A stretch of DNA of 52,647 nt from Solirubrobacteraceae bacterium (GTDB lineage: Bacteria > Actinomycetota > Thermoleophilia > Solirubrobacterales > Solirubrobacteraceae): contig DASVPU010000052.1 in the NCBI GenBank assembly GCA_036389475.1, positions 1-52,647 of the forward strand. Reading direction: 5' to 3'. The notes under the pieces were generated by a model, which did not search any database, was not told the origin of the DNA, and saw only the letters and a list, made by a program, of their open reading frames with translations. Made by a program: the position numbers and the translations under genes. This document shows positions 4,516 to 47,981 of the stretch, piece after piece; position 1 is the first letter of the stretch; each line of letters opens with the position of its first letter.

Positions 4516-4827
4516 GTGAGCGAAGAGCCTGCCGGCGTGTTCGATCAGGACCGGCATGCGCCCGAGGTCCTCGACGGGGTACCTGTGCTCGCCAAGGGGC
4601 CGCGCGCCCTCGAGCGCCCGCGCGCAGCGGGCGCGCTGGCCCCGGCGGCGGCGGTGCAGACGGTGGCGGTGGTCGGCGTGAGCGTCGTCGCCGGCGCGGC
4701 GGCGGCGACGCTGGTACGGCGGCGCCGGCTGCGGCGGCTGGAACGACGGCGTGGGCGCGTGCTGGCGCCGGTCCTCGCGAGCCGTTCGTTCCTGGTGGAC
4801 GTGCATGTGCTTGGGGAGCGCAAGTAG
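4516..4827 (+). CDS. hypothetical small protein with one hydrophobic segment
   Basis: GGAGGGG precedes GTG 4516. Contains 'AAAVQTVAVVGVSVVAGAAAATLV' followed by an Arg-rich stretch. No family recognised. Confidence 0.3.
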   Translation: MSEEPAGVFDQDRHAPEVLDGVPVLAKGPRALERPRAAGALAPAAAVQTVAVVGVSVVAGAAAATLVRRRRLRRLERRRGRVLAPVLASRSFLVDVHVLGERK

Positions 4828-4895
4828 AGCGCTAGTCGACAGGGTTACGCCGCAACGTCCGCGATCGCCAGGCGCAGCCGTCTTGCGCCCCGCGT

Positions 4896-11748: not shown

Positions 11749-11758
11749 AGCCCGTCAG

Positions 11759-12904
11759 GTGAGCCGTGTCGCGCGGGCGCACGCTCACGCAGTCCAGACT
11801 CCGCGAGGCGCCGTGGATCCGGCTGATGAAGACGAATCGGCGCCGTTACCCAGGCGTTCCGGGCTGCCTGCCGCTGGGTACGTCGCAGTCGTGCTTGCAC
11901 TCCCAGAATCGCGTGGCGAGATCTCGGAGCTCCTGCTCGGCGCGCTTGCGCGCCCCGTTCACCCAGTCGCCGCACCGCCCGTCGCCACCCCGGCGGACCC
12001 GCTCGCCGACGAGGATTTGCAGCTCGCGCTCTATCTCTGTTATGAGCTGCATTACCGCGGCCTGCCCAGCGTGCCCGACGAGTGGGAGTGGGAGCCGACC
12101 CTGCTGGCCCTGCGCCGCGCGCTCGAAGCCTGCTTCGAGACCGCGCTGCACGCCGCCGTGCCCGCGCCGCCTATGCCGCCGCCCGAGCCAGAGGAGATGG
12201 ACCTCGCCCTACGCGCCGTGGCCGAATCCGACGACGGGCCGTCGCTGTCGCGCTTCCTCGAACGCCGTGCGTCGTGGGAGCAGGTCCTGGAGTTCGTCGC
12301 GCACCGCTCCGCCTACCAGCTCAAGGAGGCTGACCCGCACTCGTGGGCACTGCCGCGCCTGCACGGCCCGCCGAAGGCCGCGCTCGTGCAGATCCAGGCA
12401 GACGAGTACGGAAACGGGCGCGCCGAGTGCATCCACGCCGAGCTGTTCGCGGACGCGATGGACGAGCTTGGCCTCGACGCCCGCTACGGCGCCTACATCG
12501 ATCACCTGCCCGGCGTCACGCTGGCGACCGTCAACCTCATGTCGCTCTTCGGTCTGCACCGCCGCTGGCGCGGCGCGATCGTCGGACACCTGGCGCTGTT
12601 CGAGATGGAGTCCTCGATTCCCAACCGCCGCTACGCGACGGGCCTGCGCCGGCTTGGCTGCGCAGAGCGTGCGACGGCGTTCTTCGACGAGCACGTGCAG
12701 GCCGATGCGATTCACGAGCAGATCGCCGCAGTCGATCTTGCCGGCGGCCTGGCCCGCCAGCAGCCGCAGTTGACCGGCGACATCCTCTGGGGAGCGGCGA
12801 CGCTCGTCGAGCTGGACGCGCGCCTGGCACGTCACATCCTCGGCGCCTGGGAGAACGAGGCCAGCTCGCTGCGCACGCCGCTGGCGGCGCCACTGGAGGC
12901 GTAA
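11759..12904 (+). CDS. heme-oxygenase-like iron-containing redox enzyme family protein
   Basis: Helical protein with paired carboxylate/His motifs 'QIQADEYGNGRAECIHAELF', 'LALFEMES' and 'FFDEHVQADAIHEQ'. GTG 11759 lies 10 nt after the upstream stop. The start is uncertain. Confidence 0.6.
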   Translation: MSRVARAHAHAVQTPRGAVDPADEDESAPLPRRSGLPAAGYVAVVLALPESRGEISELLLGALARPVHPVAAPPVATPADPLADEDLQLALYLCYELHYRGLPSVPDEWEWEPTLLALRRALEACFETALHAAVPAPPMPPPEPEEMDLALRAVAESDDGPSLSRFLERRASWEQVLEFVAHRSAYQLKEADPHSWALPRLHGPPKAALVQIQADEYGNGRAECIHAELFADAMDELGLDARYGAYIDHLPGVTLATVNLMSLFGLHRRWRGAIVGHLALFEMESSIPNRRYATGLRRLGCAERATAFFDEHVQADAIHEQIAAVDLAGGLARQQPQLTGDILWGAATLVELDARLARHILGAWENEASSLRTPLAAPLEA

Positions 12905-32963: not shown

Positions 32964-34967
32964 GTGCTGAAACGCGTGTTCGTGTTCAAGGCCGCGGTCG
33001 TCGGAGCAGGAACGATGGGAGGCGAGATCGCCCAGGTCATCGCCTCCGCCGGCATCCCGGTCGTCCTCAAGGACGTCAAGCAGGAGTTCGTCGATCTCGG
33101 CCTGAAGAAGGCCGACGAGGTCACGCGCGGGCAGCTCGCCGGTCTCGTCTCCAAGGGCAAGATCACCGAGCAGCAGGCCGATGCGCAGGCAACCGACATC
33201 CTCGGCCGCATCACCGGCACGACCGCGTACGCAGGCTTCGGCGACGTCGACTTCGTCATCGAGGCGGTGCCCGAGCGGATGGCGATCAAGCAGGCCGTCC
33301 TGGCCGAGCTCGACAGCGTCACACCCGGTCACGCGATCCTCGCGTCGAACACGTCGTCGCTGCCGATCGGCGAGATGGCCGAGGCGACCCGCCGGCCCGA
33401 CAAGGTCGTCGGCTTTCACTTCTTCTATCCCGCGTCGTTCATGCGCCTCGTCGAAATCGTCGAGGGCATCGACACGTCGCCTGAGACGGTGCAGACGGCG
33501 ACGACGTTCGCCCAGAGCATCCGCAAGCTCCCGATCGTCTGCGGCGACGAGCCGGGCTTCGTCGTCAACCGCATCCTGATGTCGTCGATCAGCGAGATCT
33601 GGCGCTTTCAGGAGGAGAACGAGCTGTCGATCAAGGCGATCGACGACGCGGTCACCGGCGCGCGCGTCGCACCGATGGGTCCGTACTTCCTCAGCGACCT
33701 GCTCGGCCTCGACACGGTGTTCCACGTCGCACAGCACCTGCAGGAGTCCTACGGGGATGACAGCTTCTACGTGCACTCCGGGCTGCGAGCGCTCGTCGAG
33801 GCCGGCGAGCTCGGCGCGAAGACCGGCAAGGGCTTCTACGCGACCGGCGAGCCGCGCTCGACCGGCGAGAGCGAGTTCGACGCCGACGAGCTCACGCAGC
33901 GCTATGTGCTCAAGGCGTTCGTCGAAGCCTGCCTGCTGCTCGAGGAGGGCATGGCATCGATGAAGGACATCGATCTCGGGATGATGGCCGGCGCCGGGAT
34001 GCTGCCGCCGCCGTTCGCGCGCGCGGACCAGAGCGGTCTGGATGACGTGCTCGACGCTCTGGAGCGCGCCGCGGCGCAGTGGGGCGACCGCTACGCGCCA
34101 CCACAGATACTGCGCCGGCTCGTCGCGCAGGGGCGCCTCGGCGTCAAGAGCGGCCAAGGGTTCTTTGCCTACAAGCGCCCGGATGACACCTTCGAGCAAG
34201 GCGACGCCGTGCAGCTCGAGACCCGCGGCGCGACCGCGATCGCGTGGCTCGACCGTCCGCCGGCGAACTCGCTCTCGCCGCAGGTCATCGCCGAGCTCGG
34301 GCGGGTCTGGGAGCACGTCGACGGCGACGACTCGATCCGCGCGCTCGTTCTCGCCTCGGCGAACCCGATGCTGTTCTGCGCCGGCGCCGACATCAAGGCG
34401 TTCACGCAGATGGACGAGCAGACCGGCGCCGCGCTGATGCACGAGACGCATGCGCTGCTGCGCTCGATGGAGCGCTCTTCGACGGCCACGATCGCCGCTG
34501 TCAACGCCGTCGCCTTCGGCGGCGGCTGCGAGCTGGCGATGGCCTGCGACGTGCGGATCGCGGCGCAGTCGGCAAGCTTCGGCCAGCCGGAGATCAACCT
34601 CGGGATCATTCCCGGCTTCGGCGGTACCCAGCGGCTGCCGCGGCTCGTGGGGACGTCGCGAGCGCTTGAGATGAACCTCACGGGCGATCCGATCTCCGCC
34701 GAGGACGCCTATGAGATCGGGCTGGTCAATCGCGTCGTGCCCGACCACGAGCTGTTCGACGCCGCGCTCGCGTGGGCGCGCAAGCTCGGCGGTCAGGCGC
34801 CTCTCGCGGTCGCGGCGATCAAGCGCACGACGGCCGGCGACGCCGACCTCGACGAGGGCATCGAGACCGAGAAGGCCGCCTTCGGCAAGATCTTCGGCAC
34901 CGCCGACGCGCGCGAGGGCATCAGCGCGTTCCTCGGCAAGCGCTCGGCGCAGTGGAAAGGCGAATAG
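32964..34967 (+). CDS. bifunctional 3-hydroxyacyl-CoA dehydrogenase / enoyl-CoA hydratase (FadB-like, dehydrogenase domain first)
   Basis: AAAGGAG precedes GTG 32964. NAD fold '[18 protein letters not shown]'. Crotonase motifs '[10 protein letters not shown]' and '[15 protein letters not shown]'. Confidence 0.9.
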
Positions 34968-35710
34968 CCGGCGCCGGCGTCCAGAAGCTGGCGGAGCTCG
35001 TCCGCTCCGCTGCATCGACCGTTGCGCTGACCGGCGCCGGGATCTCGGTCCCGTCCGGGATCCCCGACTTCCGCTCTCCCGCAACCGGGATCTGGGAGAA
35101 CGTCGACCCGATGCAGGTCGCGCACATCGACGCTTGGCGCCGTGACCCCCAGCGCTTCTGGAGCTTCTATGGCCAGCGCTTCCAGATGCTCGGGGACAAG
35201 CTCCCCAACGCTGCCCATGAGGCTCTGGTCGAGCTTGAGAGCCGGCGGCTGCTCGACGCGGTCATCACGCAGAACATCGACATGCTGCACCGCAAGGCGG
35301 GCACGAAGGATCTGATCGAGGTTCACGGATCGATCGCTACGAGCTCATGCTCCAGCTGCGAAGCGAGCTTCGGGCTCGACGAGGTGCTGGCGCGCTGCCG
35401 CGACGGAGGAGGAGTGCCGCCGTGCGATTGCGGGCGCCCGCTGAAGCCCGACGTCGTGCTGTTCGGCGAGCTCCTCCCGCAAGCGGCGCTCCGGCGAGCG
35501 AGCGCGCTGGCGGAGAATGCCGAGCTGTTGCTCTGCGTCGGCTCCTCGCTGGAGGTCTTTCCGGTGGCTGCGCTGCCGCAGTCGACGTTGCGCGGCGGCG
35601 GGCAGGTCGCGATCGTCACCCAGGGCCAAACGCCTTGGGACAAGCAGGCAGCCGTCAAGCTCAGCGGCGACGTCGCGGACGAGCTGACGTGTCTTGTTGC
35701 CGCGTTGTAA
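34952..35710 (+). CDS. cobB: NAD-dependent protein deacylase, Sir2 family
   Basis: 'ALTGAGISVPSGIPDFRS', 'ITQNIDMLHRKAG', 'EVHGS' and the zinc ribbon 'CSSC ... CDCG'. There is no ATG. GTG 34952 overlaps the FadB-like 3' end by 16 nt. The start is uncertain. Confidence 0.75.
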   Translation: MERRIAGAGVQKLAELVRSAASTVALTGAGISVPSGIPDFRSPATGIWENVDPMQVAHIDAWRRDPQRFWSFYGQRFQMLGDKLPNAAHEALVELESRRLLDAVITQNIDMLHRKAGTKDLIEVHGSIATSSCSSCEASFGLDEVLARCRDGGGVPPCDCGRPLKPDVVLFGELLPQAALRRASALAENAELLLCVGSSLEVFPVAALPQSTLRGGGQVAIVTQGQTPWDKQAAVKLSGDVADELTCLVAAL

Positions 35711-35918
35711 ACCACGGAGAGCTGTCCCCCGAGCACGTCCGCCGGCAGCCGCATAAACAGGATCAAAATAAGCAGCGCGGGCCTCCTGTCTATACGTGAG
35801 CATGGATCCGCGGCGCTTAGATCTAGGTCGATCGAACGTCTTGACGTTTAGATCTGATCAGGGCACCCTGAATACTCAAGAAGGGCTGCGCAATGAAGAC
35901 GAGGCGGGGGTAATCACA

Positions 35919-36584
35919 GTGGATGTAAAGCCAGTGCGTACTGTCGTGATCGGCGAGATCCGGGTGTACCGCGAAGGCCTGGCACAGGTTCTCGGCCGCC
36001 AACCAAGCATCGACGTCGTCGGCACCGGATGCACGACCGAGGACGCGTTGGCCTGCGTCGCCGAGCAGCGGCCGGACGTCGTGCTCGTCGATGACGGCCT
36101 GCCGAGTGCCCGGACGCTGATCGGACGGATCAGCGGCGGCGATCACCGCGTGAGCGTGCTCGCGATCAGCGTACCGGAGGAGGAGCGTGCCGTCCTCGCC
36201 TGCGTCGAGGCCGGCGCTGCCGGGTTCCTCCCGCCCCAGGCGTCGCTGGCGGAGGTCATCGCGGCCGTCACGGCGCTTGCGCAGGGCGAGTTTCACTTTC
36301 CGTCGCGGATGACCGCGATGCTCCTCCGGCGCGTCACGCGCCTGTCGTCCCCGAAGGAGCTCGGTGCCGACGGGATGCTGACGCGCCGAGAGCACGAGGT
36401 CGTCGACCTCATCGAGGGAGGACTGTCCAACAAGGAGATCGCGCGGCGCCTGAGCATCAGCATCGCCACCGTGAAGAACCATGTTCACAACATCCTGCAC
36501 AAGCTCGACGTGGGATCTCGTAAAGAAGCTGTGGCGCGCATCCGGGCGCTGCGTACTCCCAGCTACGGGTCCAGCCATTCCTGA
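35919..36584 (+). CDS. LuxR/NarL-family regulator with an atypical receiver domain (no cognate kinase adjacent)
   Basis: C-terminal HTH 'LTRREHEVVDLIEGGLSNKEIARRLSISIATVKNHVHNILHKL'. The receiver has 'VVIGEIR' in place of the acidic DD pair and 'GFLPPQ' in place of the conserved Lys. The longest ORF starts at 35796. Confidence 0.75.
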   Translation: MDVKPVRTVVIGEIRVYREGLAQVLGRQPSIDVVGTGCTTEDALACVAEQRPDVVLVDDGLPSARTLIGRISGGDHRVSVLAISVPEEERAVLACVEAGAAGFLPPQASLAEVIAAVTALAQGEFHFPSRMTAMLLRRVTRLSSPKELGADGMLTRREHEVVDLIEGGLSNKEIARRLSISIATVKNHVHNILHKLDVGSRKEAVARIRALRTPSYGSSHS

Positions 36585-36744
36585 GACTGATATCTACTCG
36601 AGCTGGTCCACCTGCGTGACTGATATAGATCACCGCGATCCACGTCTACCCGCCGATCCAAGATAGATCCTCGATCCATTTTCACCGCAACGCGGTGGAG
36701 TGATACTGCGTTGGTCCTGACACTCCAACACGAGGAGACGAGCG
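36585..36744 (+). promoter_or_regulatory. repeat-rich, comparatively AT-rich promoter/operator region of the peptide operon
   Basis: GACTGATAT occurs at 36585 and 36618. GATCCA occurs at 36637, 36655 and 36673, an 18-nt period. Palindrome CACCGC-AAC-GCGGTG at 36683-36697. A possible -35 TTTTCA (36679) and -10 GATACT (36701). GAGGAG RBS at 36732. Confidence 0.4.
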
Positions 36745-37035
36745 ATGGCAAACGGAGATCTCGAGCAGCGGGTCGCGGCGCTGGAAGCCCAAGGCGGCCA
36801 GAGCGGCGGAGGCGCAGGCGGAGGCGGCGACGCAGGCCAGGTCCAAGCGTTCCTACAGGGCGCGCTGGCGGCGTATGCCGCGTCCCAGCAGCCTCAGGCC
36901 CAGGGGCTGCAGGCGGGCGGCGGGGCCGGCGGCGAACAAGGCCTCTTCGGGTGGAACCCGACGAAGTACGACTCGATCTTCTGGTGCAAGAGTCGATTCA
37001 TGTGCAACCCGCAGTCGGTTTCCTGCCTCTGCTAG
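36745..37035 (+). CDS. candidate RiPP (lanthipeptide-type) precursor peptide
   Basis: 96 aa, with GAGGAG 7 nt upstream. Gly/Gln/Ala-rich leader. The last ~30 aa, 'LFGWNPTKYDSIFWCKSRFMCNPQSVSCLC', hold all 4 Cys and 5 of the 7 Ser/Thr. It sits directly upstream of the kinase/LanC genes. Confidence 0.7.
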   Translation: MANGDLEQRVAALEAQGGQSGGGAGGGGDAGQVQAFLQGALAAYAASQQPQAQGLQAGGGAGGEQGLFGWNPTKYDSIFWCKSRFMCNPQSVSCLC

Positions 37036-37048
37036 CACGGCGACTGAC

Positions 37049-37137
37049 GACGACGGCCCATCAGGCACACGCAAGGCCAGCCTGTTCCGGCGGGAGGCGC
37101 CCCGTGGGGCGCCACCAGCCGGACGGGGGCCGTCGTC
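37049..37137 (+). promoter_or_regulatory. nested stem-loop between the precursor and biosynthetic genes (possible attenuator / processing site)
   Basis: Outer stem GACGACGGCCC (37049-37059) pairs with GGGCCGTCGTC (37127-37137). Inner hairpin GGCGCCCC (37096-37103) pairs with GGGGCGCC (37106-37113). No U-tract. Confidence 0.4.
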
Positions 37138-37152
37138 GCCGCCACAGACCAG

Positions 37153-38289
37153 ATGCAACAGATCGCACACCGCAAGCGTGCGGCTCTCATGAGCGAGAGC
37201 GATGTCGTCGACTATCTTCTCGAACGCAACCTGATCGACGCGGCTGCGATCGTCGACGGCGATCTGCGGCTCATCGATGCCTCGCGACGCAACACGAACT
37301 TCCGCGTGGTGCGTGAGCGGGCCTCCTCATACCTGCTCAAGCAGGGCGCAGGTCGTGACCCGTTCGTATCGACTGCGCGCGAGGCGTTCGTCTACGCGCT
37401 GCTCGCCGACGCCGGTGGGAAGGCGATTGCGCGGCTCCTGCCCCGGGTCTACGACTTCGACGCCGATCGCGAGCTGCTCATCATCGAGCTCTTCGAAGGT
37501 GCCGACGACCTGCGCGCCTACCACCACCGCCGGGGGCGCTTCCCGACATCGGTCGCGGCGCAGCTCGGCAAAGCACTCGCGCAGCTGCACGCGCTACCCG
37601 CTCGCGCCGGCGCAACGATGGGCGGACATGCGCTCGACGCTCCCGAGCCGGCCGGGTTGTTCCTGCACCGCCCGGGCCTTCCGGTCCTGCACGACCTCAG
37701 CGGCGCCGGCACGGACATCGTGCGCCTGATCCAGCGCTCGGACGGCGTCTTCGACGTGCTCGAGAGCATGCGCCGGCAGTGGCGGCGAGACCGCTTCATC
37801 CACCACGACATGCGCTGGGACAACGTCCTTGTCACTCGAACTGCGAGCGGTAAGCCGGCGTTGAAGCTCATCGACTGGGAAGCCGCGGGCCTGGGGGATC
37901 CGGGTTGGGACCTCGGTGGGATCCTCGGCGACTACCTCGCCTGCTGGATCACCTCCATCCCGCTCACCGGCCACGACACGCCCGACCGTTATCTGGGTCT
38001 GGCTCGCTACCCGCTGAAAGCGATTCAACCGGCGCTGGGCGCGTTGTGGAACGCCTACGTAGCCCAGGCGGGGCTGACGGCGAGCGAGTGCCGCGAGCTG
38101 CTGATCGCGACGGCGAGATACACGGGGCTGAAGCTCATGGAGATGGCACTTGAACACGTCCAGCATCAGCCAGAGTGCAACATGACGGCGGTTACGCTCG
38201 TCCAGGTCGGAGTCAACATCGTGACCAGTCCCGAGCATGCAGCTCGCGTGCTGCTATCGCTCGCCGCGCCGTCTGAGGCTTTGCAGTGA
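37153..38289 (+). CDS. protein-kinase-like phosphotransferase (APH/MtnK-type), putative peptide Ser/Thr kinase
   Basis: 'FIHHDMRWDNVLV' (HxDxxxxN catalytic loop) and 'LKLIDWEAAGLGDPGWDL' (metal-binding Asp). N-lobe 'RNTNFRVVRERASSYLLKQG'. An alternative ATG lies at 37189. Confidence 0.75.
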   Translation: MQQIAHRKRAALMSESDVVDYLLERNLIDAAAIVDGDLRLIDASRRNTNFRVVRERASSYLLKQGAGRDPFVSTAREAFVYALLADAGGKAIARLLPRVYDFDADRELLIIELFEGADDLRAYHHRRGRFPTSVAAQLGKALAQLHALPARAGATMGGHALDAPEPAGLFLHRPGLPVLHDLSGAGTDIVRLIQRSDGVFDVLESMRRQWRRDRFIHHDMRWDNVLVTRTASGKPALKLIDWEAAGLGDPGWDLGGILGDYLACWITSIPLTGHDTPDRYLGLARYPLKAIQPALGALWNAYVAQAGLTASECRELLIATARYTGLKLMEMALEHVQHQPECNMTAVTLVQVGVNIVTSPEHAARVLLSLAAPSEALQ

Positions 38290-40709
38290 GTGAACATCTT
38301 CGTCAGGTACAGCAGGTCGTGGGGGCCGTCGAGATCACCTCACCCACGTCGTTCACCTGGTTTGGTGCGCCGTCGGGGCAGCTGCCGGCGCGAGTCAGGC
38401 GCGAGATCGATGCGGCAGTTGCGCGATCTCACCTGTTGTTCACCCTTCGCAATCACCTCTACAAGGACTTCTACTGTGTCGGGTTCGCTTCACGCATGGC
38501 GCCGGAGGTGGGCGAGGCGTCGGTTTCATGCCAGGAGACCCAGCTGACGCGCGAGCTGGCGCGCGCAAACCGTGGCTGCGGCTACTGGCAGCCGGGGTGG
38601 GTCGTGACGGGCCGCCACGACGAGATGGTGGTCGTACGCCGCGACGGGCTGGAGCTCTGGATCGCGACCGAGGACTGCAGGCCCTGCGCGGGCGGATCGA
38701 TCGCACCTGCGTCCGACGTCGCGCTACGGCTGCCAAACGGCTCGTGCGAGCTCTCGCCCGGCTACTACTCGGCGATGAGCGACGAAGCACTGGACCCAGA
38801 GGGGAGGGGGGGCACGCTCGTTCGCCTGTACTGGAACGTCGCGCCGGCGTCGGCCGCATGCCTCATGATCGCGATCACCTCCCACCTGAATGCTGCGCGC
38901 CTGCCGTTCAGGCTGAAGATCCTCAGCGACGCGCTCTCCTACGGGCGTTGTGACACCGCCGTGCTGTACATGCTCAAGGACGATCTCAAGGCAGGTGCTC
39001 GCGAGCTGGCGCGGGCGTATGCCGAGGCGCTTGACGGCCTGCGGCCGGGGACCCCCGCATTCACGAAGGAGATCGCGCATGGAGTGAGCCTGGCGGAGGA
39101 TGCCGGCGACGGTGAGAGCTTCGGGCAGCACCGCTGCGAGCTGCTCGCCGAGGGACTGATCCGCGCGTCCGAGCACGGTCACCGCAAGCTCGAGCAGCGC
39201 ATGGCGAGCGTGGAGGGGACGTTCGCGCAGGCGGGCGTGGACTTTGAGCTCCCCTATCTGCGGCACGGCTCGGCGGATGACTACGACCTCGTGCTTGCGC
39301 CACAGCCGGCGGTGCGACGCGCGCGAGGAGCGACTGATCGCTCGCCCGACGCCGCCGCGTTCCTCGCGATCGCCACTCAGATCGGGGAGCGGCTCGTCGC
39401 CGAAGCGGTATGGGACGAGGATCGCTGCAACTGGCTGGCGCTGCTTCCCCACGCGATCACGACGCGGCAGATCGGCCTCTCCTATGGAGCCCTGAACCAC
39501 GAGCTCTACGACGGCACGAGCGGGATCGCGCTGTACCTCGCCCAGCTGCACTGCCTCACCGGCGACGAAGCACTGCGCCGGACGGCGCTCGGAGCCGCGC
39601 GGCAGGCGCTACGCGTCGCCGCGCAGGACAGGTTAACGATCGGCTTGTACACCGGGACGCTCGGCATCGCCTTCGCCTCGGCCTGCGTCGGGATGCTGCT
39701 GTCAGAGGACTCGCTCGCGCCGCTCGCGGCCCGCCTCGTGCGGCGAATCTCCGACGGCGAAGGCGAGATCGCTGGCTTCGACTTCCTCTCCGGGCGCGCC
39801 GGCGCGATCAGCGGCCTGCTGATCCTGCACGAGGCGCTCGGGGATCGGCTGTTCCTCGCGCTTGCCAGACAGCTCGGCGACGACCTGGTTGCCAGCGCCG
39901 AGCGGACGCCGCGGGGCTGGTCATGGGTCTCTGACATGGAAGGTGGCAACCACCCCAACCTCACGGGTCTGTCGCACGGTGCCGCCGGTGCCGGACACGC
40001 CCTGCTCGAGCTCTTCGACGCAACCGGTGACACGCTGTATCGTGCGGGCGCCGAAGGGGCCTACCGCTACGAGCGCTCCTGGTTCTACGACGACGAGCGC
40101 AACTGGCCCGACCTGCGCGAGCAGCCGCGCCGCAGCACGCAGCCTCGTCCTGGCACCTGCCGGGTCCAGTGGTGCCACGGCGCGCCGGGGATTGCGCTGG
40201 CGAGGATCCACGCCTATGAGGTCCTCGGCGACCCCGTCTACCGCGACGAAGCGCTGACGGCGCTGGCGACGACCGAGTCACAGACCGAGATGGCGCTGCG
40301 CCGCTCGACGTTGAGCTACTGCCTGTGCCACGGCCTCGGAGGCAACGCCGATGTCCTCCTGGAGGGTCGGCGACTACGTTCGCCAAACGCGGCCAACCGC
40401 GCCAACGGCGCCAACGTTGGCGGCTCGTTGCCGGTGCGGATCGGCGCCGCCGGCATCGGCGCGCACGCCGAGAGCGGGATGCCGTGGCCGTGCGGGATCC
40501 CGGTACCTGGGCGGGAGACGCCGGGGCTGATGCTCGGACTGGCTGGCATCGGCCACTTCTACATGCGCCTGGCGTTCCCCGAGGCGATCCCGTCGATGCT
40601 GCTGCCGCGCCGCGCGGACGTCGCCCGTTTCGCGGCGCTGGCAGGACCGCGCGACCGCATCGCAGTCGCCGATCACGATCCCCGGCTGGAAGAGAGGAGC
40701 CCGTCATGA
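38286..40709 (+). CDS. fusion protein: N-terminal HopA1-like (putative phospho-Ser/Thr lyase) domain + C-terminal LanC-type zinc cyclase
   Basis: GTGA overlap with the kinase stop. LanC motifs 'GLSHGAAGAGHAL', 'VQWCHGAPGIALA' and 'YCLCHGLGGNAD'. The N-domain carries 'LVRLYWNV', 'LPFRLKIL', 'YGRCDTAVLYM' and 'ESFGQHRCE'. Confidence 0.75.
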   Translation: MSEHLRQVQQVVGAVEITSPTSFTWFGAPSGQLPARVRREIDAAVARSHLLFTLRNHLYKDFYCVGFASRMAPEVGEASVSCQETQLTRELARANRGCGYWQPGWVVTGRHDEMVVVRRDGLELWIATEDCRPCAGGSIAPASDVALRLPNGSCELSPGYYSAMSDEALDPEGRGGTLVRLYWNVAPASAACLMIAITSHLNAARLPFRLKILSDALSYGRCDTAVLYMLKDDLKAGARELARAYAEALDGLRPGTPAFTKEIAHGVSLAEDAGDGESFGQHRCELLAEGLIRASEHGHRKLEQRMASVEGTFAQAGVDFELPYLRHGSADDYDLVLAPQPAVRRARGATDRSPDAAAFLAIATQIGERLVAEAVWDEDRCNWLALLPHAITTRQIGLSYGALNHELYDGTSGIALYLAQLHCLTGDEALRRTALGAARQALRVAAQDRLTIGLYTGTLGIAFASACVGMLLSEDSLAPLAARLVRRISDGEGEIAGFDFLSGRAGAISGLLILHEALGDRLFLALARQLGDDLVASAERTPRGWSWVSDMEGGNHPNLTGLSHGAAGAGHALLELFDATGDTLYRAGAEGAYRYERSWFYDDERNWPDLREQPRRSTQPRPGTCRVQWCHGAPGIALARIHAYEVLGDPVYRDEALTALATTESQTEMALRRSTLSYCLCHGLGGNADVLLEGRRLRSPNAANRANGANVGGSLPVRIGAAGIGAHAESGMPWPCGIPVPGRETPGLMLGLAGIGHFYMRLAFPEAIPSMLLPRRADVARFAALAGPRDRIAVADHDPRLEERSPS

Positions 40710-41809
40710 CAGATCGGTGTCGAAGCTGCGGGCGTCACGCACCACCCGTCGTCTGCTCGATCATCCCGTCCCACGTGCTCGCCGAGCTCAGCACTGGCGG
40801 AGGCGACGGCGGGCAGGACGCTGCAATCAAGACGCTCGCCGCCTCGTCCAGCGTCCGCGGGCAGCGCACGGTCACGGCGAGGCTGCTGCGCCAGCTCGAC
40901 ACCGGGATCGCCGGCCTGCTCCCTGCCGCCGCAGGAAACCACGAGCGCCAGACGATCTATGACGCGCAAGGCGAGACGCGCCTGCCTGGAGCCAAGGTCC
41001 GCGGCGAATCAGACGATCCGGCCCGCGATGCGATTGCGAACGAGGCCTTCGACGGCGCCGAGCGTAGCTACAGCTTCTTCAAGGACGTCTTCGGCCGCAA
41101 CAGCATCGACGGCCAGGGCGTGAAGCTCATCTCCTCCGTGCACTACGGCCAAGCCTTCGACAACGCGCTGTGGAACGGCACGCAGATGATCTACGGCGAC
41201 GGGAGCGGAGCGATCATCGCGCAGGGCCAGCTCACGAAGGCGATCGACGTCATCGGCCACGAGCTCACCCACGGCATCACCCAGACGACCGCCGGACTGG
41301 AGTACCGCAAGCAGTCCGGAGCGCTGAACGAGTCGTTCTCGGACGTCTTCGGCTCGCTCGTCAAGCAGCGTGTCCGGGGGGAGACGGCGGAGCAGGCCGA
41401 TTGGCTTATCGGCGAGCGGCTGCTGGGGAGCGCTCTGAAGGGAAAGGCACTCCGGTCATTGAAGGACCCGGGCCATGCGTTTGACTTCGATCGCCAGCCG
41501 GCACACGTGAACGACTACGTCGACCTGCCCGACGACAACGACCCCCGCAACGACAACGGCGGGGTGCACATCAACTCCGGCATCCCCAACCACGCCTTCT
41601 ACCTCGTGGCGACGACCCTCGGCGGGAACGCCTGGGAGAAGCCGGGGCAGATCTGGTTTAAGACGCTGACCGAGCGACTGCGACCGAAATCGGACTTCCT
41701 CGAGGCTGCCAACGCGACCGTTGACGTCGCGGGCAAGCTGTTCGGCGACGGCGGCTTGGAGCAGCGCGCGGTGCGCGCCGCATGGAGGGTCGTGGGCGTC
41801 TTGCGATGA
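40706..41809 (+). CDS. M4 (thermolysin-family) metallopeptidase of the signal-less protealysin-like type
   Basis: ATGA overlap with the LanC gene. 'VIGHELTHGITQ' (HExxH), 'GALNESFSDVFG' and 'GGVHINSGIPNHAFYL'. N-terminal 'VVCSIIPSHVLAEL' resembles the propeptide motif. No signal peptide. Confidence 0.9.
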   Translation: MTDRCRSCGRHAPPVVCSIIPSHVLAELSTGGGDGGQDAAIKTLAASSSVRGQRTVTARLLRQLDTGIAGLLPAAAGNHERQTIYDAQGETRLPGAKVRGESDDPARDAIANEAFDGAERSYSFFKDVFGRNSIDGQGVKLISSVHYGQAFDNALWNGTQMIYGDGSGAIIAQGQLTKAIDVIGHELTHGITQTTAGLEYRKQSGALNESFSDVFGSLVKQRVRGETAEQADWLIGERLLGSALKGKALRSLKDPGHAFDFDRQPAHVNDYVDLPDDNDPRNDNGGVHINSGIPNHAFYLVATTLGGNAWEKPGQIWFKTLTERLRPKSDFLEAANATVDVAGKLFGDGGLEQRAVRAAWRVVGVLR

Positions 41810-42129
41810 GGCTGACGGTGGTCCAGGGCGGCGGCATCGCCGGGCTCCTGCGGACGGTGTCGGCCGATTCGGCGTCGCTGGAGCCGGCGCAGGCCGATGC
41901 CCTCGAGGCCATGATCGAGGATGCCGGCCTGTTCGACCTGCCCGAGCGGCTGGGACCCGCCTCCTCGCACCCCGACGCGTTCGACTATGAGCTGACCGTC
42001 GAGGACGGCGAGCGGCGCAAGACGATCCGCGCCAGCCAGGACGCGCTGCCCGAGCAGGTGCGCGCGCTGATCCAGTGGCTGCAGTCGGTGCCGGGCCACG
42101 AGGAGCGAGTCCATGCGCCGGGCACCTAG
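41806..42129 (+). CDS. emfourin-like small protein (putative proteinaceous inhibitor of the adjacent M4 peptidase)
   Basis: ATGA overlap with the peptidase stop. 107 aa with 'MRLTVVQGGGIAGLLRTV ... PDAFDYELTVEDGERRKTIRA ... LPEQVRALIQWL'. Confidence 0.55.
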   Translation: MRLTVVQGGGIAGLLRTVSADSASLEPAQADALEAMIEDAGLFDLPERLGPASSHPDAFDYELTVEDGERRKTIRASQDALPEQVRALIQWLQSVPGHEERVHAPGT

Positions 42130-42154: not shown

Positions 42155-44110
42155 CTAGGATCGCTCCTGACGACCGCCGAGGTGCTCGGCGAGGAACTGC
42201 TCGGCAGCAGCGATGAAGCGCAGCTGGCTGTGCTCACCGACAAGGCTGTGGCCCTCGTCATCGAAGCGCAGGTACGTGTGCGGCACGCCGCTCTGCGTCA
42301 TCGCCTCCACCAGCGCCTCGGACTCCGCAACGCTCACGCGCGGGTCGTGGGCGCCATGCGCGAGGAGCACGGGGATTCGGATGTCGGCGGCATGAGCGAG
42401 CGGCGAGCGTGCCCAGAGGAGTTCCGCGTCGTGGCGCGGGTCGCCGATGCGGCGGCGTAGCTGCGGCGCGAGGCCCGCCCAGTACGGCGGCGTGCGCTCG
42501 ATCAGCGTCACGAGGTTCGTCGGGCCGGCGAGGGAGATCGCGCAGCGGAACACGTCTGGAGTGAACGCGGCGGCGGCGAGGGCCGCGTACCCGCCGTAGG
42601 ATGCGCCCGAGATCCCGATCCGAGCTCCGTCGGCGTGGCCCTCGTCGATGGCCCAGGCGACCGCGTCCACGAGATCGTCCTGCATCTTGGCACCCCATTC
42701 GCGGTCGCCGGCGGCCAGAAACCGCCTCCCGTAGCCGGTGGAGCCGCGGAAGTTGACCTGGATGCAGAGGTAGCCGCGGTTGGCGAGCCACTGCACCTCC
42801 GGATCGAACCCCCAACGATCACGGCCATAGGGACCGCCGTGGACGCTGACCACCGCCGGCCACCGTGCCCGTCCGAACGTGGGAAACGTCACGTAGCCGT
42901 GGACGAGCAAGCCGTCACGCGCGCGAAAGCTGAAGGGCTCCATCCGCGCCAGGCGGTAGCGGCTCAGCGCGGGGCGTGTCTGGAAGAGCAGCTCTGGCTT
43001 GCGCGAGCGCCGGTCGTAGAGGTGGTAGACCGGGGGACGGTCGTCGGCGTTCAGCCGCACGATCCAGCGCTGATCGGCATCGTCGCGGCTCGTCAGGTGC
43101 GGATCGCCTCGGCCGAGCTCGCCATGGGCCGCGAGATCCGGCTCGAGCGCGCGGTCGACGACGAGGTAGCGCAGCCGCTCGCCGTCGACCGTGGCCAGCT
43201 GCGGCTCGTGCGTATGCGGATCGATCCGCACGCCGGAGATGTCGAACGACGGATGCCCCGCGATCTCGCGCGCGCTGCCGTCGTTCAGATTGAGGCGGTG
43301 CAGGCGCGCCGTGTCTTCGCCGAAGGTGCAGACGGCGAACAGCTCGCGGCCGTCATCGCTGAAGCCGAAGGCAGAGGTGGCGAACGCATCGTCGGCGTCC
43401 GCGACGAGGATCGTGCGCCACGTGCCCGGGCCGGCGTCGCGCACCCAGATCTCAAGGCCGCCGTCCGCCCGCGGGTGGATCCCCCCGCGCGGGCGCAGCT
43501 GATGATCGACCACCCACGAGGGAAACCAGGAGAACCCCGGGTTCTTCTCGGCCAGCTCGATCTCACCGGTCGCGATCCGGATCCTGTAGGCGTCGTGCAG
43601 CTCGGGGTCGTCGCGATTGAGGCCCACGAGCGCCTCCCCGGGCACGGCCGGCTCGAGCCCCAGCAAGCGCGCCTGGACACCATCGAAGGGCGTCAGGTCG
43701 CGATCCTCGCCCGTCTGCACGTCGACGGCGTGCAGATGCCAGTTCTCGTCGCCGTCGCGGTCCTGGACGTACAGCAGATGGCGGCCGTCGTGTGCCCACG
43801 CGTGGCCCATGATGCTGCGCCGGGACTCGCGCGTCAGCGGTCGCGCTCGCGTCGAGTCCAGATCGCCAACCCAGATGTTGGAGATTCCGCCGCTGGGCGC
43901 GAGGTACGCGATGCGTCGACCGTCGGGCGACAGCGCCGGCGCTTCTCGCTGGGGATTGTCGAAGAGCACGCTGCGCGCAATCAACCCGGCCTCCGCTTTC
44001 GCTGGCGCACCACGTTTCGACGGGCCGGCGTCAGCCATCGTCCCGCTGCCGTTCACGGCCCCGGTCAGCGCGGGCTCGCGGGCATGTCCGGCGCACCCTG
44101 TACAGAACAT
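42155..44110 (-). CDS. S9 family serine peptidase (prolyl oligopeptidase / dipeptidyl peptidase type)
   Basis: N-terminal beta-propeller repeats ('LSPDGRRIAYL', 'WAHDGRHLLY'). Catalytic 'GISGASYGGYAALAAAAF'. C-terminal 'HGAHDPRV' and 'DEGHS'. The start may be ATG 44038. Confidence 0.85.
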   Translation of the reverse strand: MFCTGCAGHAREPALTGAVNGSGTMADAGPSKRGAPAKAEAGLIARSVLFDNPQREAPALSPDGRRIAYLAPSGGISNIWVGDLDSTRARPLTRESRRSIMGHAWAHDGRHLLYVQDRDGDENWHLHAVDVQTGEDRDLTPFDGVQARLLGLEPAVPGEALVGLNRDDPELHDAYRIRIATGEIELAEKNPGFSWFPSWVVDHQLRPRGGIHPRADGGLEIWVRDAGPGTWRTILVADADDAFATSAFGFSDDGRELFAVCTFGEDTARLHRLNLNDGSAREIAGHPSFDISGVRIDPHTHEPQLATVDGERLRYLVVDRALEPDLAAHGELGRGDPHLTSRDDADQRWIVRLNADDRPPVYHLYDRRSRKPELLFQTRPALSRYRLARMEPFSFRARDGLLVHGYVTFPTFGRARWPAVVSVHGGPYGRDRWGFDPEVQWLANRGYLCIQVNFRGSTGYGRRFLAAGDREWGAKMQDDLVDAVAWAIDEGHADGARIGISGASYGGYAALAAAAFTPDVFRCAISLAGPTNLVTLIERTPPYWAGLAPQLRRRIGDPRHDAELLWARSPLAHAADIRIPVLLAHGAHDPRVSVAESEALVEAMTQSGVPHTYLRFDDEGHSLVGEHSQLRFIAAAEQFLAEHLGGRQERS

Positions 44111-45485: not shown

Positions 45486-47981
45486 CTACTCGGCCTTGTG
45501 CGCCTGACTGGCCCGCCCCAGCTGCGGGACCTTGATCGCGTACTTGGACGGCGCCAGCTGGACCGTGGGATTGTCGATGTGACCCAGGCGGTCGATCAGC
45601 TTGATCCACTGCGACGGCTTGAGCACCGATGAGGCGATCTGCCCGGCCTTCGAGTTCAGGCTGAACTGCGGCCGGAAGCCGACGTGGATGTGGTCGGCGT
45701 GGTCGGCCATCGCGAGTGTGTTGTCAGCGCCCTCGTAGGTCATCAGGGTGATGATCTGCGCGGGCTTCATCGTCCCCTGCAGCGTCAGCAACCTGCGAAC
45801 CGCGATGTCCGTGATCGAGCCCGCACCCTGGTTGCCCAGGATCGGGATCCCGTTGATCTTGGCGATGTCCACCGCGTTACCCGACGAGTGCGCCGAGACG
45901 TTGCCCGACGAGGTGTAGTAGCCGTGGCCACACTGCAGCGACGTGACGGTCGGCTTCAGACCCGAGGACGCGAGGAACTCGAGCGTCGCGAGCACGCGGC
46001 GGTCGACGATCCCCGACTCGATGTCACGACGTCCGCAAGAGTAGGTCTCGATCCGAGGGTTAGCCAGGACGCGCTGGATCAGGTTGTCCTTGCTCTCGAG
46101 CAGGATCTGCCCGATCGTCGCGGTCTGGGCGTTCTCGCCGAGCAACGGGTTCTTGCCCTGCGCCCGGTAGATCGCGGTCGACTCGAGCAGCTTCCAGCCG
46201 TCGAGGATCGGCTTCGGATCGATCCGCGGAGCTCCGCGCCCGGCGGGCCGGATCTCGAACAGCATGTGCGGAGCGAGCGTCGGCGACGTCTTGCCGATCC
46301 GTCCGAGGATCGTGCCCGCGATGACGCGGCGACCGGGGACCAGACGCTTGAGCACGACGTCGTGGCGGTTGAGGCCGTAGACCCCGGTGAAGTACGACTT
46401 GACGTTGCCCGTCAGCGCCGACTCGGATTCGAGGATCTGCTTGCGCCCGCCGCTGTCCAGCGCCCTCGGGCGCGACGGGTTGGCGAACAGCCGCTCCTTG
46501 GCGACGGCCGTCGTCTCCTGCACCGCCTGAGCGGGCGCCTGGACGGCCTGCTTGACGGCCTTGACCGGGTCCTTGACCACCTTCTTGACTGCCGTGCTGG
46601 AGGACGAGCTGGCCGGCGCCGTGGGCGCCGGGTCGGCCTTCGGGAGCGCGAGCTCCTTGGCGATCGACTCCTTCGTCTGCGTCTTGCTCTTGGGCACCGG
46701 CACCTGCTTGGCGACGGTCTTCAGACCGGCGTAGGTGTAGGTGTTGCCGTAGGCGTCGCGCAGCATCACGAAGTTGCCAAGGCGCGTGTTGCGCCCGACC
46801 TTGACGATCTTGCCGTCCTGGACGGCCACGACCGCAGACTTCGCGTTGGCGAAGATGTTGATGCCGCGCCGAGCGCTCTTGCCCTCGACCGGCATCGCCG
46901 CGTTCTGGCCGCGAGCGAAGCGACGTGTCGCGTCGCGCTCGGAGATGTCGTCGGCGTACTTCGACGTCGCGTGGACCGGGAAGATGCCCTGCGTCAGCCC
47001 GCTGATCGAGCCGATGAGATCCGCTGGCATGCCGCCGATGAACCGTGCGCGCATGAGCACCGAGTCGACGTACCAATCGGCGTGGTTGTAGGCGTAGATC
47101 GCCTTGCGCAGATCCTGATCGGCGCCCGCCGCCTTGAGATAGCGCGCCGCGGCGAAGATTGCGTCGACCGGGTTGTAGGGATCCTTCTTGCCATCGGAAT
47201 TGGCGTCCACCGCCCACGTCTTCCAGCTCGACGGGATGAACTGCATCCAGCCCATCGCCCCGGCGGAGCTGACGTTGAGGTTGCGGCCATAGTCGGTCTC
47301 GATCTCGTTGATCGCCGCCAGGACCTCCCAGCGGATGCCGTACTGGATGCCCGCCGCCTGATAGATCGACAGCAAGAAGGCCGGGATCCGGAACTTGTTG
47401 ATGAAGAAGTTCGGAACGCCGACGGGAACCGCGCCGGGGAGAGCCAGGGACATCGTCGGGTTCGACAGCGTCGGGATGCCGTTGGAGTGGCGCAGGTCGG
47501 TGGCCTTCGGCCGGGCGGTCTCGGGCGCCCGCGCGGCGGTGTCCAGAAGGCGTCCGGCCGTATCGACCCCCTTCTCGACGTTGGCCTTGGCCTTCTTCGA
47601 CTTCTTGACGACCGTCTTGTCGACCGGGGCCTGGAGCGGGACGGTTGGCTGCTCTGCGACCGGGGCGGCAGGCGCCGCAGCCGGTACGGTGGGCTTGATC
47701 GACAGCGACGGTCCGTTGCTGGGGGGCGCGTTGACCGGCGTGATCTCCTTGATGCTGAGGATCGGCAGCGCCCCGATGTTGGGCAGCCTGATCTGATCAA
47801 GGGGGAGGTCTGCACCCACATCGATCGTGATGGTCTTCTTGATCTTTCCGAGCAGCTGGAGTTCGAACGTGCGCTTGATAGCGCTCGCGGGGCCAGCAAA
47901 TGTCCCGAATCCGACGGCTATGCCGCCGCTCGCGACCATAGCCATGAGCAGCCTACGCTTGTGGTGCATGTGTTCCTGCAT
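45486..47981 (-). CDS. secreted multidomain peptidoglycan hydrolase (lytic transglycosylase + M23 peptidase + LAS/M15-like zinc peptidase)
   Basis: Signal peptide 'LLMAMVASGGIAVGFGTFAGPASA'. SLT domain 'AINEIETDYGRN ... GAMGWMQFIPSSW'. M23 domain 'VVAVQDGKIVKVG ... APHMLFEIRPAG'. C-terminal 'SAHSSGNAVDIA ... ADHADHIHVGF'. Confidence 0.8.
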   Translation of the reverse strand: MQEHMHHKRRLLMAMVASGGIAVGFGTFAGPASAIKRTFELQLLGKIKKTITIDVGADLPLDQIRLPNIGALPILSIKEITPVNAPPSNGPSLSIKPTVPAAAPAAPVAEQPTVPLQAPVDKTVVKKSKKAKANVEKGVDTAGRLLDTAARAPETARPKATDLRHSNGIPTLSNPTMSLALPGAVPVGVPNFFINKFRIPAFLLSIYQAAGIQYGIRWEVLAAINEIETDYGRNLNVSSAGAMGWMQFIPSSWKTWAVDANSDGKKDPYNPVDAIFAAARYLKAAGADQDLRKAIYAYNHADWYVDSVLMRARFIGGMPADLIGSISGLTQGIFPVHATSKYADDISERDATRRFARGQNAAMPVEGKSARRGINIFANAKSAVVAVQDGKIVKVGRNTRLGNFVMLRDAYGNTYTYAGLKTVAKQVPVPKSKTQTKESIAKELALPKADPAPTAPASSSSSTAVKKVVKDPVKAVKQAVQAPAQAVQETTAVAKERLFANPSRPRALDSGGRKQILESESALTGNVKSYFTGVYGLNRHDVVLKRLVPGRRVIAGTILGRIGKTSPTLAPHMLFEIRPAGRGAPRIDPKPILDGWKLLESTAIYRAQGKNPLLGENAQTATIGQILLESKDNLIQRVLANPRIETYSCGRRDIESGIVDRRVLATLEFLASSGLKPTVTSLQCGHGYYTSSGNVSAHSSGNAVDIAKINGIPILGNQGAGSITDIAVRRLLTLQGTMKPAQIITLMTYEGADNTLAMADHADHIHVGFRPQFSLNSKAGQIASSVLKPSQWIKLIDRLGHIDNPTVQLAPSKYAIKVPQLGRASQAHKAE

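Follow-up and report, generated by a model that had tools for sequence, protein, structure and literature searches.

Positions 36745-37035 (forward strand) of a 52,647-nucleotide stretch of DNA from a Solirubrobacteraceae bacterium (contig DASVPU010000052.1, assembly GCA_036389475.1; the whole stretch is called the window below) encode a 96-residue peptide which is most probably the precursor, LanA, of a lanthipeptide produced by class V-type machinery with a LanC cyclase among its enzymes, following the logic of the subclass known as Vb. The open reading frame (ORF) is a real gene, conserved and under selection, and it is followed by genes for a stand-alone kinase (LanK) and for a lyase (LanY) and a cyclase (LanC) joined in one polypeptide. 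An earlier reading, made from the letters of the window (hereafter the sequence-only reading), had described the ORF as the precursor of a peptide made by ribosomes and modified after translation (RiPP), with a leader and a core. This description holds, since the small ORF is conserved beside synthetase genes and its core bears Ser, Thr and Cys. By its predicted domains, the locus is a class V (Vb-type) system and not a new class.

Precursor gene and its conservation

The precursor gene (36745..37035, +) comprises 96 codons plus stop, and the peptide quoted in the sequence-only reading is its exact translation; all the residue counts given there were recomputed and are correct. A sharp switch in composition separates leader from core at 66|67. 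Gly, Gln and Ala make up 70% of residues 1-66, from which Cys, Trp and Lys are absent, and 7% of residues 67-96, where all four Cys, both Trp and both Lys are found together with one of the two Arg and five of the seven Ser/Thr. The motifs SIFWC (residues 77-81) and SRFMC (residues 83-87), two NP pairs and the C-terminal SVSCLC were likewise all found in the translation. The two helices expected in the leader are returned by AlphaFold at residues 4-17 and 29-47, along with an extra short helix at residues 76-81, in a model of low confidence (predicted local distance difference test, pLDDT, 57 overall). No signal peptide was found in the translation.

The window DNA is 70% G+C and rich in spurious ORFs. 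That this ORF is more than a chance product is indicated by its coding-like G+C content at the three codon positions (0.71/0.55/0.81), by a Shine-Dalgarno sequence, GAGGAG (36732-36737), located 7 nt 5' of the ATG, by 37 homologues and by the codon-position bias of its substitutions. The homologues, recovered in a search of 5.8 billion proteins, are nearly all metagenomic, and none carries a functional name (at most, hypothetical protein). The family is small: when 1.84 billion representative proteins were searched with a profile, only 12 clusters came up. No family in Pfam or NCBIfam matches the peptide, and a literature search with the core strings RFMCNP and YDSIFWC returned no papers.

In the alignment of the homologues, the core is almost invariant from P72 on, while the Gly/Gln-rich stretches are free to vary in length. 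Residues T73, Y75, D76, W80, C81, S83, R84, C87, N88, S91, S93, C94 and C96 are invariant, and P72, S77, F85, M86, P89 and L95 are more than 90% conserved. Substitutions were counted over the last 25 codons of eight independent loci, in pairs which are not independent of each other: differences at codon positions 1:2:3 amount to 89:48:218, with 167 synonymous and 102 non-synonymous differences. This third-position bias is a signature of translation under purifying selection. Together with the near-invariance from P72, it marks out the core peptide (residues 67-96, LFGWNPTKYDSIFWCKSRFMCNPQSVSCLC; 36943..37032, +).

The tandem S-x-F-x-C units singled out in the sequence-only reading proved to be the most conserved hallmark of the family, down to its remotest members, P0230 and P0231, which read DSVLWC-TSRFVC. 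The spacings S-x-x-x-C, S-x-x-x-C and S-x-S-C-x-C are strictly conserved throughout. The comparison suggested by the same reading, of small ORFs beside homologues of 38286-40709, was carried out on eight loci and found the ORF and its Cys and Ser positions conserved. In all eight, which are independent, the order precursor, kinase, lyase-cyclase is identical; the flanking genes differ and the identity of the peptides ranges from 48 to 91%.

Modification enzymes and class assignment

The gene at 37153..38289 (+) encodes a stand-alone Ser/Thr kinase of the APH family (Pfam APH, PF01636, 3e-17), the only APH-family gene in the window. Its top NCBIfam match is the class V kinase LxmK (E = 4e-30), and its sole sequence match in the PDB is 9dk1_A, the kinase of LxmKY, the class V dehydratase complex of lexapeptide, whose structure has been solved. 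The motifs HHDMRWDN at residue 217 (HxDxxxxN, the Brenner motif) and IDWE at residue 240 are both present. The following gene (38286..40709, +; GTG start) encodes the 807-residue LanY-LanC fusion, with matches to Pfam HopA1 (PF17914, 4e-37) and LANC_like (PF05147, 2e-52). A HopA1/LxmY-type lyase occupies residues ~1-340 and a zinc-type LanC residues ~355-790, with a disordered linker at ~340-350. The AlphaFold2 model of the fusion accordingly consists of two domains (pLDDT 83.6, predicted template modelling score 0.70). In Foldseek searches, the best match of the lyase half is LxmY (9dk1-3, chain B; template modelling (TM) score 0.75, 25% identity), while the cyclase half matches LanCL1/2 (0.70), MadC (0.65) and NisC (0.64), as well as the cyclase domains of LicM2 and of the class IV enzyme CuvL.

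Catalytic residues are conserved in both halves. In the lyase CaoY, R187, K219 and R229 are important by mutagenesis, and SpvC Tyr158 has its conserved equivalent in Y236 (PMC9486802). The residues R180/K211/R221/Y228 of the window lyase match these by spacing (31/10/7 vs 32/10/7) and are invariant or nearly so among 16 diverse homologues. Among the zinc ligands of the cyclase, C630 (in WCHG) and C681/H682 (in CLCHG) are invariant and H564 (in SHG) is nearly invariant. A search of 185,579 species-representative genomes (GTDB) gave 47% identity for the best enzyme homologue, so that no close sequenced relative of the source was found there.

What defines class V is a LanK that stands alone (PF01636) together with a LanY (PF17914); class Va adds the flavin decarboxylase LanD and LanX, a second APH-like protein, leading to a C-terminal aminovinyl-methylcysteine (AviMeCys), and class Vb combines LanK and LanY with a LanC cyclase, yielding only (methyl)lanthionine, (Me)Lan (PMC11186320, PMC12291118, PMC12328550). 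As of 2024, mSmoA was the sole Vb member to have been characterised; this stapled peptide has two rings that overlap and a third at the C-terminus (PMC11186320). The window locus encodes a stand-alone APH kinase and a HopA1 lyase with the Arg/Lys/Arg/Tyr set, as in class V, and alongside them a cyclase with zinc ligands, as in class Vb. The marks of class Va are missing, with a single APH-family ORF in the window and no flavoprotein in a scan of the ORFs between 28 and 50 kb. The same scan found no LanB, LanM dehydratase domain (PF13575), LanKC/LanL, LanX or flavoprotein LanD. Class II is contradicted by the HopA1-type N-terminal half of the fusion; the NCBIfam LanM model is matched only in its C-terminal cyclase part (positions 538-932, 246 bits vs a cut-off of 304).

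Fused enzymes of this kind are widespread. About 60 protein clusters carry both HopA1 and LANC_like domains, and at least 545 related loci occur in species-representative genomes, from which the 80 closest, non-redundant ones were retrieved. These belong mainly to Acidobacteriota, Chloroflexota, Actinomycetota, Bacteroidota, Pseudomonadota, Planctomycetota and Bacillota. Lyase and cyclase are fused in 56 of the 80 and encoded by adjacent separate genes in the remaining 24, and the kinase gene lies directly upstream in nearly all of them. One kinase/lyase-cyclase pair, with an FLKG-box peptide downstream, was found on a 5-kb contig assigned to a Nitrososphaeraceae archaeon (L016, CAYTQD010000085.1, a metagenome-assembled genome, MAG), which could reflect mis-binning or horizontal transfer. 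No paper in the searchable literature pairs PF17914 with PF05147. The paper that defined class Vb, Pei et al. 2022 (JACS), may already include fused enzymes, and for this reason the locus is filed as a class V (Vb-type) member and not as a new class.

Leader and the FLxG box

The leader contains two elements of very different conservation. The first is an N-terminal amphipathic helix (residues 4-17, DLEQRVAALEAQ; 36754..36795, +), helical in the AlphaFold2 model and variable or dispensable in the family: it is absent in P0021, P0023 and P0035 and replaced by a domain of ~110 residues in P0227 and P0228. The sequence-only reading had seen in this helix, at AALEAQ, a possible recognition motif of the kind found in class III/IV leaders. 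AALEAQ does not match the (I/L)(L/F)(D/E)LQ pattern of those leaders, and the suggestion is not supported, since the machinery is not of class III/IV and the helix is missing or replaced in five homologues.

The second element, here called the FLxG box (residues 34-45, QAFLQGALAAYA; 36844..36879, +), is proposed as the enzyme-recognition site on the grounds of its conservation both in the family and across phyla. In the precursor family, A35, F36, L37 and A40 are more than 90% conserved and G39 is invariant. The second helix, QAFLQGAL (residues 34-41), never changes and lies within the block of highest pLDDT of the peptide model. Moreover, the box is retained where the remainder of the leader is swapped, in P0227 and P0228. 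Between the box and the core extends a Gly/Gln/Ala-rich disordered linker (residues 48-66; 36886..36942, +), reaching up to the proposed cleavage site G66|L67; its residues 50-66 have pLDDT below 50, and its length and sequence vary among homologues.

The box was then sought at 77 non-redundant loci, over 1.2 kb of DNA upstream of each kinase gene, with the rest of the same DNA as background. The pattern F[LMI]xGx[ILV] occurs there in 39 of the 77 loci, against 0.05 expected per locus, and about ten further loci are gained if the pattern is relaxed to accept Y or W in place of F. The ORFs bearing it nearly always end in a Cys/Ser/Thr-rich tail, a median of 64 residues further on. Their aligned consensus is QA[D/E]FLxG[D/E/G/A]I[A/T]xx[F/Y]L, in which the search pattern fixed F and G and left the flanks Q-A-[D/E] and I-[A/T]-x-x-[F/Y]-L entirely free. 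Furthermore, the residue after the box F is Leu in 40 of 41 sequences, although the pattern permitted L, M or I. The Bacteroidota-type loci clearly have other precursors.

From these data we infer that the FLxG box could be the leader element recognised by the kinase and the lyase-cyclase, a role which, across phyla, may parallel that of the FNLD box of class I leaders. The occurrence of one invariant core on two unrelated leader N-termini suggests modular leader exchange around the box. No description of the box was found in the searchable literature; it may be covered by Pei et al. 2022.

Some further observations concern these leaders and the precursors that carry the box. The core …YDSILWCQSRFMCNPQSVSCLC is the one found behind the different N-terminal domain of P0227 and P0228. 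This domain of ~110 residues is similar to long leaders encoded at Acidobacteriota and Chloroflexota loci (L008 4340-4822, L034 4361-4840 and L036 ~3700-4230); Pfam and NCBIfam have no match for it. Other precursors of kinase/lyase-cyclase loci carry tandem Ser…Cys units after the box, namely GSFLC x8, GG[H/Q]SFAC x6, GSLGRAC x3, GSWARDC x2 and SLF[N/D]xC x3, whereas the precursor of a Lacinutrix locus has another repeat (DDCCWIVLATTGCST x4) and no box. These repeat-bearing precursors were noticed at L031 ~1314-1592, L032 ~4546 onward, L034 ~4649-4837, L050 ~4659-4829, L046 ~4672-4866 and L077 3984-4316.

Leader removal and the associated proteases

The lyase-cyclase gene is followed by one for an M4 metalloprotease of the thermolysin/protealysin-like type (40706..41809, +; Pfam Peptidase_M4_C 3e-54, Peptidase_M4 3e-28), a candidate leader peptidase. 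Its ATG overlaps the stop of the fusion gene (ATGA), HELTH is found at residue 185 and no signal peptide is visible by eye. Next comes a gene for a putative M4 inhibitor of the Emfourin family (41782..42129, +; Pfam Emfourin 3e-20). Emfourin is known as an inhibitor of protealysin, an M4 protease that is intracellular and has debated physiological substrates (PMC9505478).

The eight homologous loci fall into two types according to their proteases. In type 1 (the window, L004, L093 and L094), an M4 protease gene at the equivalent position is followed by an Emfourin gene in four of four cases, forming a bicistron at 40706-42129 in the window, 13771-15142 in L004, 5071-6899 in L093 and 6279-7796 in L094; L004 has a second M4 and Emfourin copy at 6053-7442, 4 kb upstream. 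Type 2 loci (L001, L087, L089 and L091) carry an S8 protease and a conserved 85-residue protein, usually with a BTAD regulator.

The boundary at 66|67 drawn in the sequence-only reading coincides with the onset of conservation and with a covariation between protease and junction. In type 1, conservation starts at QG[L/I]FGWNPT, and the junction in the M4 loci reads QG|[LI]FGW. In type 2, [A/S/T]-P-[A/Q] stands before an F instead (as FLSIFxC… or GFTSYDS), and the junction in most S8 loci reads Pro-[A/Q]|F. The junction thus differs with the type of protease, M4 or S8, in four loci versus four, and this covariation supports cleavage at G66|L67. Thermolysin-like M4 enzymes favour a bulky hydrophobic residue at P1', and subtilisin-type lanthipeptide proteases often cut two residues past Pro, as in class I leaders. 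The M4-Emfourin pair may be read, attractively, as a gated leader peptidase.

A serine peptidase of the S9 family (Dpp5/Atxe2-like; 42155..44110, -; Pfam Peptidase_S9 8e-47) is loosely included in the cluster, with NCBIfam matches to Dpp5 and lasso-isopeptidase models that stay below their cut-offs. It occurs in the window and in L004 and was not seen in L093 and L094. The S9 enzyme was considered as the primary leader peptidase, cutting at P72|T73, and rejected: type 2 loci keep S/T-P-T without an S9 gene, and two of the four type 1 loci lack it. It may instead be a trimmer of LFGWNP.

The ~85-residue protein is encoded after the S8 protease in every type 2 locus, in parallel to Emfourin after M4 (L087 14366-14623, L001 15608-15865, L091 6982-7245 and L089 12170-12424). 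Its sole match is a subtilase prodomain, below threshold (E = 0.089), and a function as protease inhibitor would be a guess by analogy.

Gene neighbourhood

Upstream of the precursor lies a response regulator of the LuxR/NarL type with a receiver domain and a GerE helix-turn-helix (35796..36584, +; Pfam GerE 3e-17, Response_reg 8e-9), whose MadR/NarL-like NCBIfam match is below cut-off. It is likely the pathway regulator. A GerE-type regulator occupies the equivalent position in L004, and a BTAD regulator in type 2 loci. The promoter and 5' region of the precursor gene (36585..36744, +), which includes the Shine-Dalgarno sequence, drops in G+C content down to 0.55. Two pairs of direct repeats lie within 36585-36678, GACTGATAT x2 (36585 and 36618, spacing 33) and CC[G/T]CGATCCA x2 (36633 and 36669, spacing 36); judged by sequence and position, they are possible regulator-binding sites. 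A scan for sigma-70 promoters and intrinsic terminators returned nothing, a result from which no conclusion follows in the DNA of a high-GC actinobacterium.

Between the precursor and kinase genes, a very stable RNA hairpin is predicted (37039..37143, +), with a folding energy of -69.9 kcal/mol (z = -4.2, none of 200 shuffles equally stable) and no T-tract. A long, near-perfect GC hairpin follows the precursor stop in all eight homologous loci, for example at L004 10295-10346, L087 9340-9425, L089 7031-7131, L091 1934-2028 and L093 1048-1250, and the sequences are unrelated. A hairpin between structural and enzyme genes is a usual arrangement by which precursor transcript is raised over enzyme transcript, and the one described here is a candidate attenuator or transcript stabiliser. 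Downstream of it, the overlaps between the kinase and lyase-cyclase genes (GTGA) and between the lyase-cyclase and M4 genes (ATGA) indicate that the three would be expressed as one operon.

In type 2 loci, a luciferase-like oxidoreductase gene stands beside the precursor in three of four cases; by analogy with lexapeptide, its product might reduce dehydro residues to D-amino acids. Type 2 precursors also have, upstream of the core that all share, a third ring unit, FLSIF[G/S/A]C, with a few Gly in a row after it (L087 9001-9339, L089 6695-7030 and L091 1529-1933).

Within 10 kb of two homologous clusters, other RiPP-related genes were noticed: an ATP-grasp (MvdD-like) gene, a methyltransferase and an 82-residue ORF at L001 1331-3690 (a Mycobacteriales MAG), and a RiPP-like set of YcaO, ThiF and a 121-residue ORF at L004 1-1394. 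In the window itself, a Sir2-family gene (34772-35710, +) lies directly upstream of the regulator and is not conserved in the other loci, a large cell-wall hydrolase with SLT and M23 domains (45486-47981, -) is an unrelated neighbour, and a GCS2 glutamate-cysteine ligase gene (10579-12904, +) may belong to an ergothioneine-type operon. A nearby housekeeping enzyme has 80-84% identity to proteins of Solirubrobacteraceae/Thermoleophilia MAGs, which makes an uncultured bacterium of this actinobacterial lineage the probable source.

Discussion

Box recognition, ring pattern and cleavage site are all inferred, and the pathway proposed for the locus would run as follows. The 66-residue leader would dock through the FLxG box (residues 34-45) on the kinase and lyase-cyclase pair, and LanK would phosphorylate Ser/Thr within the 30-residue core. 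The HopA1/LxmY-type lyase half would remove phosphate to give dehydroalanine (Dha) and dehydrobutyrine (Dhb), to which the zinc-dependent LanC half would add the four Cys thiols. The likeliest rings are the i,i+4 lanthionines S77-C81 (36973-36987, +) and S83-C87 (36991-37005, +), each spanning one turn of a helix, together with the interlocked S91-C94 and S93-C96 formed within the S-x-S-C-x-C unit (S91/S93/C94/C96; 37015-37032, +), while T73 would be left as a dehydro residue or unmodified. The co-transcribed M4 protease, restrained by Emfourin, would then remove the leader at G66|L67, possibly followed by trimming of LFGWNP by the S9 peptidase. Read jointly, the FLxG box as a general recognition element of LanK/LanY-LanC systems in at least seven phyla, the M4-Emfourin pair as an inhibitor-gated leader peptidase and modular leader exchange form a tentative combination, which we consider possible rather than probable.

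Several points weigh against the assignment and the pathway. LanY and LanC are one 807-residue ORF in the window and separate in published Vb systems. The kinase scores 105 bits against the LxmK equivalog cut-off of 315, and is a homologue but not an equivalog. The covariation of junction and protease comes from only four plus four loci, and the S8 locus P0029 has no Pro at -2. Involvement of the S9 peptidase is weak, as the gene occurs in two of the four type 1 loci and clusters free of S9 retain Pro72. The window cluster includes neither a transporter nor an immunity gene, which leaves export and function unexplained. Finally, the ring topology is a guess from residue spacing, and modification of the peptide is a prediction from the genes.

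The likeliest alternative is that the kinase and lyase dehydrate the peptide and the product is something other than the proposed four-lanthionine peptide, with different rings (involving T73 or long-range), partly non-enzymatic ring closure, residual Dha/Dhb or tailoring enzymes encoded elsewhere. We consider it unlikely, though it carries real weight. In mSmoA, the only characterised Vb peptide, the rings made by the cyclase overlap and differ from the spontaneous product, so that topology is not predicted by spacing alone (PMC12328550, PMC11186320). Five invariant or near-invariant Ser/Thr are available for four Cys, and the luciferase-like oxidoreductase of type 2 loci recalls the reductase of lexapeptide, reportedly an F420H2-dependent enzyme that makes D-amino acids. 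On the other hand, the spacing within both S-x-x-x-C units and within the S-x-S-C-x-C unit is kept strictly in the family, and the ORFs scanned in the window cluster include no extra tailoring gene. Rings of i+3 and i+4 are the commonest lanthionine sizes, as in ring A and rings D/E (TATCHC) of nisin.

The four-lanthionine class V product is also to be set against a class III/IV precursor, whose AALEAQ helix would be recognised like (I/L)(L/F)(D/E)LQ and whose rings might be of the labionin type. The kinase-lyase-cyclase chemistry is indeed the same as that of LanL/LanKC, the cyclase half has sub-threshold NCBIfam matches to LanL/LanKC models, Foldseek matches include CuvL (class IV) and ThurKC/SalKC (class III), and a helix is predicted at residues 4-17. 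The analogy, drawn in the sequence-only reading, is contradicted by the domain architecture: there is no trifunctional LanKC/LanL enzyme and no PF00069 domain, and a separate APH-family kinase and a HopA1/LxmY-type lyase make up class V machinery. The LanL/LanKC matches are confined to the cyclase part and far below cut-off, the core has no labionin motif S-x-x-S-x-x-x-C (nor one with x(3-5)), and several members of the family lack or replace the N-terminal helix but keep the FLxG box. This alternative is very improbable. Just as improbable is a spurious ORF or a small unmodified protein (coiled-coil, or disulfide-rich and secreted) standing beside the enzymes by coincidence, for although high-GC DNA yields many spurious ORFs, no Pfam or NCBIfam family covers the peptide and its four Cys could pair as two disulfides, the core is under purifying selection with 37 homologues, the adjacency to kinase and lyase-cyclase is invariant in eight loci despite differing flanks, the leader box is common to Cys/Ser/Thr-rich ORFs upstream of such pairs across phyla, and no signal peptide is present.

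As a Vb-type system, the locus adds a second, sequence-defined precursor family, with an almost invariant core of 24-30 residues that could readily be expressed in a heterologous host, from Solirubrobacteraceae-like Thermoleophilia, for which we know of no characterised natural products. Of the 80 examined loci nearest to the window enzyme, more have the lyase-cyclase fusion than separate genes, and the cross-phylum leader motif offers a handle for genome mining in a barely explored enzyme class. The M4 protease/Emfourin pair would be linked to RiPP maturation and, if this is true, the Emfourin/protealysin-like family would gain its first defined physiological substrate. A young class is extended in this way; the current understanding of it is not overturned and no new kind of system is added.

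Comparison with known systems

The nearest system is that of mSmoA (smo, class Vb; Pei et al. 2022), taken here as described in papers that cite it (PMC11186320, PMC12291118, PMC12328550). In both, a LanK of the APH type and a LanY of the HopA1 type would dehydrate the peptide and a LanC-type enzyme would close the rings, and LanD and LanX are absent. The smo product is described as containing only Lan/MeLan and no aminovinyl-cysteine (AviCys), with overlapping and C-terminal rings, and the window core likewise has an S-x-S-C-x-C unit at its C-terminus. The two differ in that LanY and LanC of smo are stand-alone whereas those of the window form one 807-residue polypeptide, in the source (Streptomyces for smo, an uncultured Solirubrobacteraceae-like actinobacterium for the window), and in the M4 protease and Emfourin that the window cluster adds.

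With the class Va pairs LxmK/LxmY and CaoK/CaoY, the window shares the folds of kinase and lyase (9dk1-3), the conserved CaoY residues in its lyase and the action of both enzymes on a leader-bearing peptide. In contrast to them, it has no LanD, LanX or LanJ reductase, hence no AviMeCys, and it does have a zinc LanC domain. LanL (CuvL, PDB 8cav) performs the same three chemical steps and also has a zinc-dependent cyclase with Cys/Cys-His ligands, but it is a single polypeptide with a central protein-kinase-like domain and an OspF-type lyase, whereas the window has a separate kinase of the APH family and a HopA1-type lyase. CaoY and its homologues have Arg where OspF has Lys104, and they lack His106 (PMC9486802).

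The class I system of nisin is more distant, as it dehydrates with LanB and glutamyl-tRNA while the window has no LanB, and there is no sequence similarity between the two. In nisin, ring A is formed by S3-C7 and the interlocked rings D/E by T23-A-T25-C26-H-C28. The S-x-x-x-C units of the window core have the spacing of ring A and its S-x-S-C-x-C unit that of rings D/E, a likeness of spacing only.

As for the proteolytic part, the protealysin-emfourin operon of Serratia proteamaculans equally consists of an M4 protease without evident signal peptide followed by an Emfourin-family gene. It differs from the window-type M4-Emfourin pair in that the latter is translationally coupled to lanthipeptide biosynthetic genes, in four loci, which suggests for this pair a defined substrate, the leader of the precursor.

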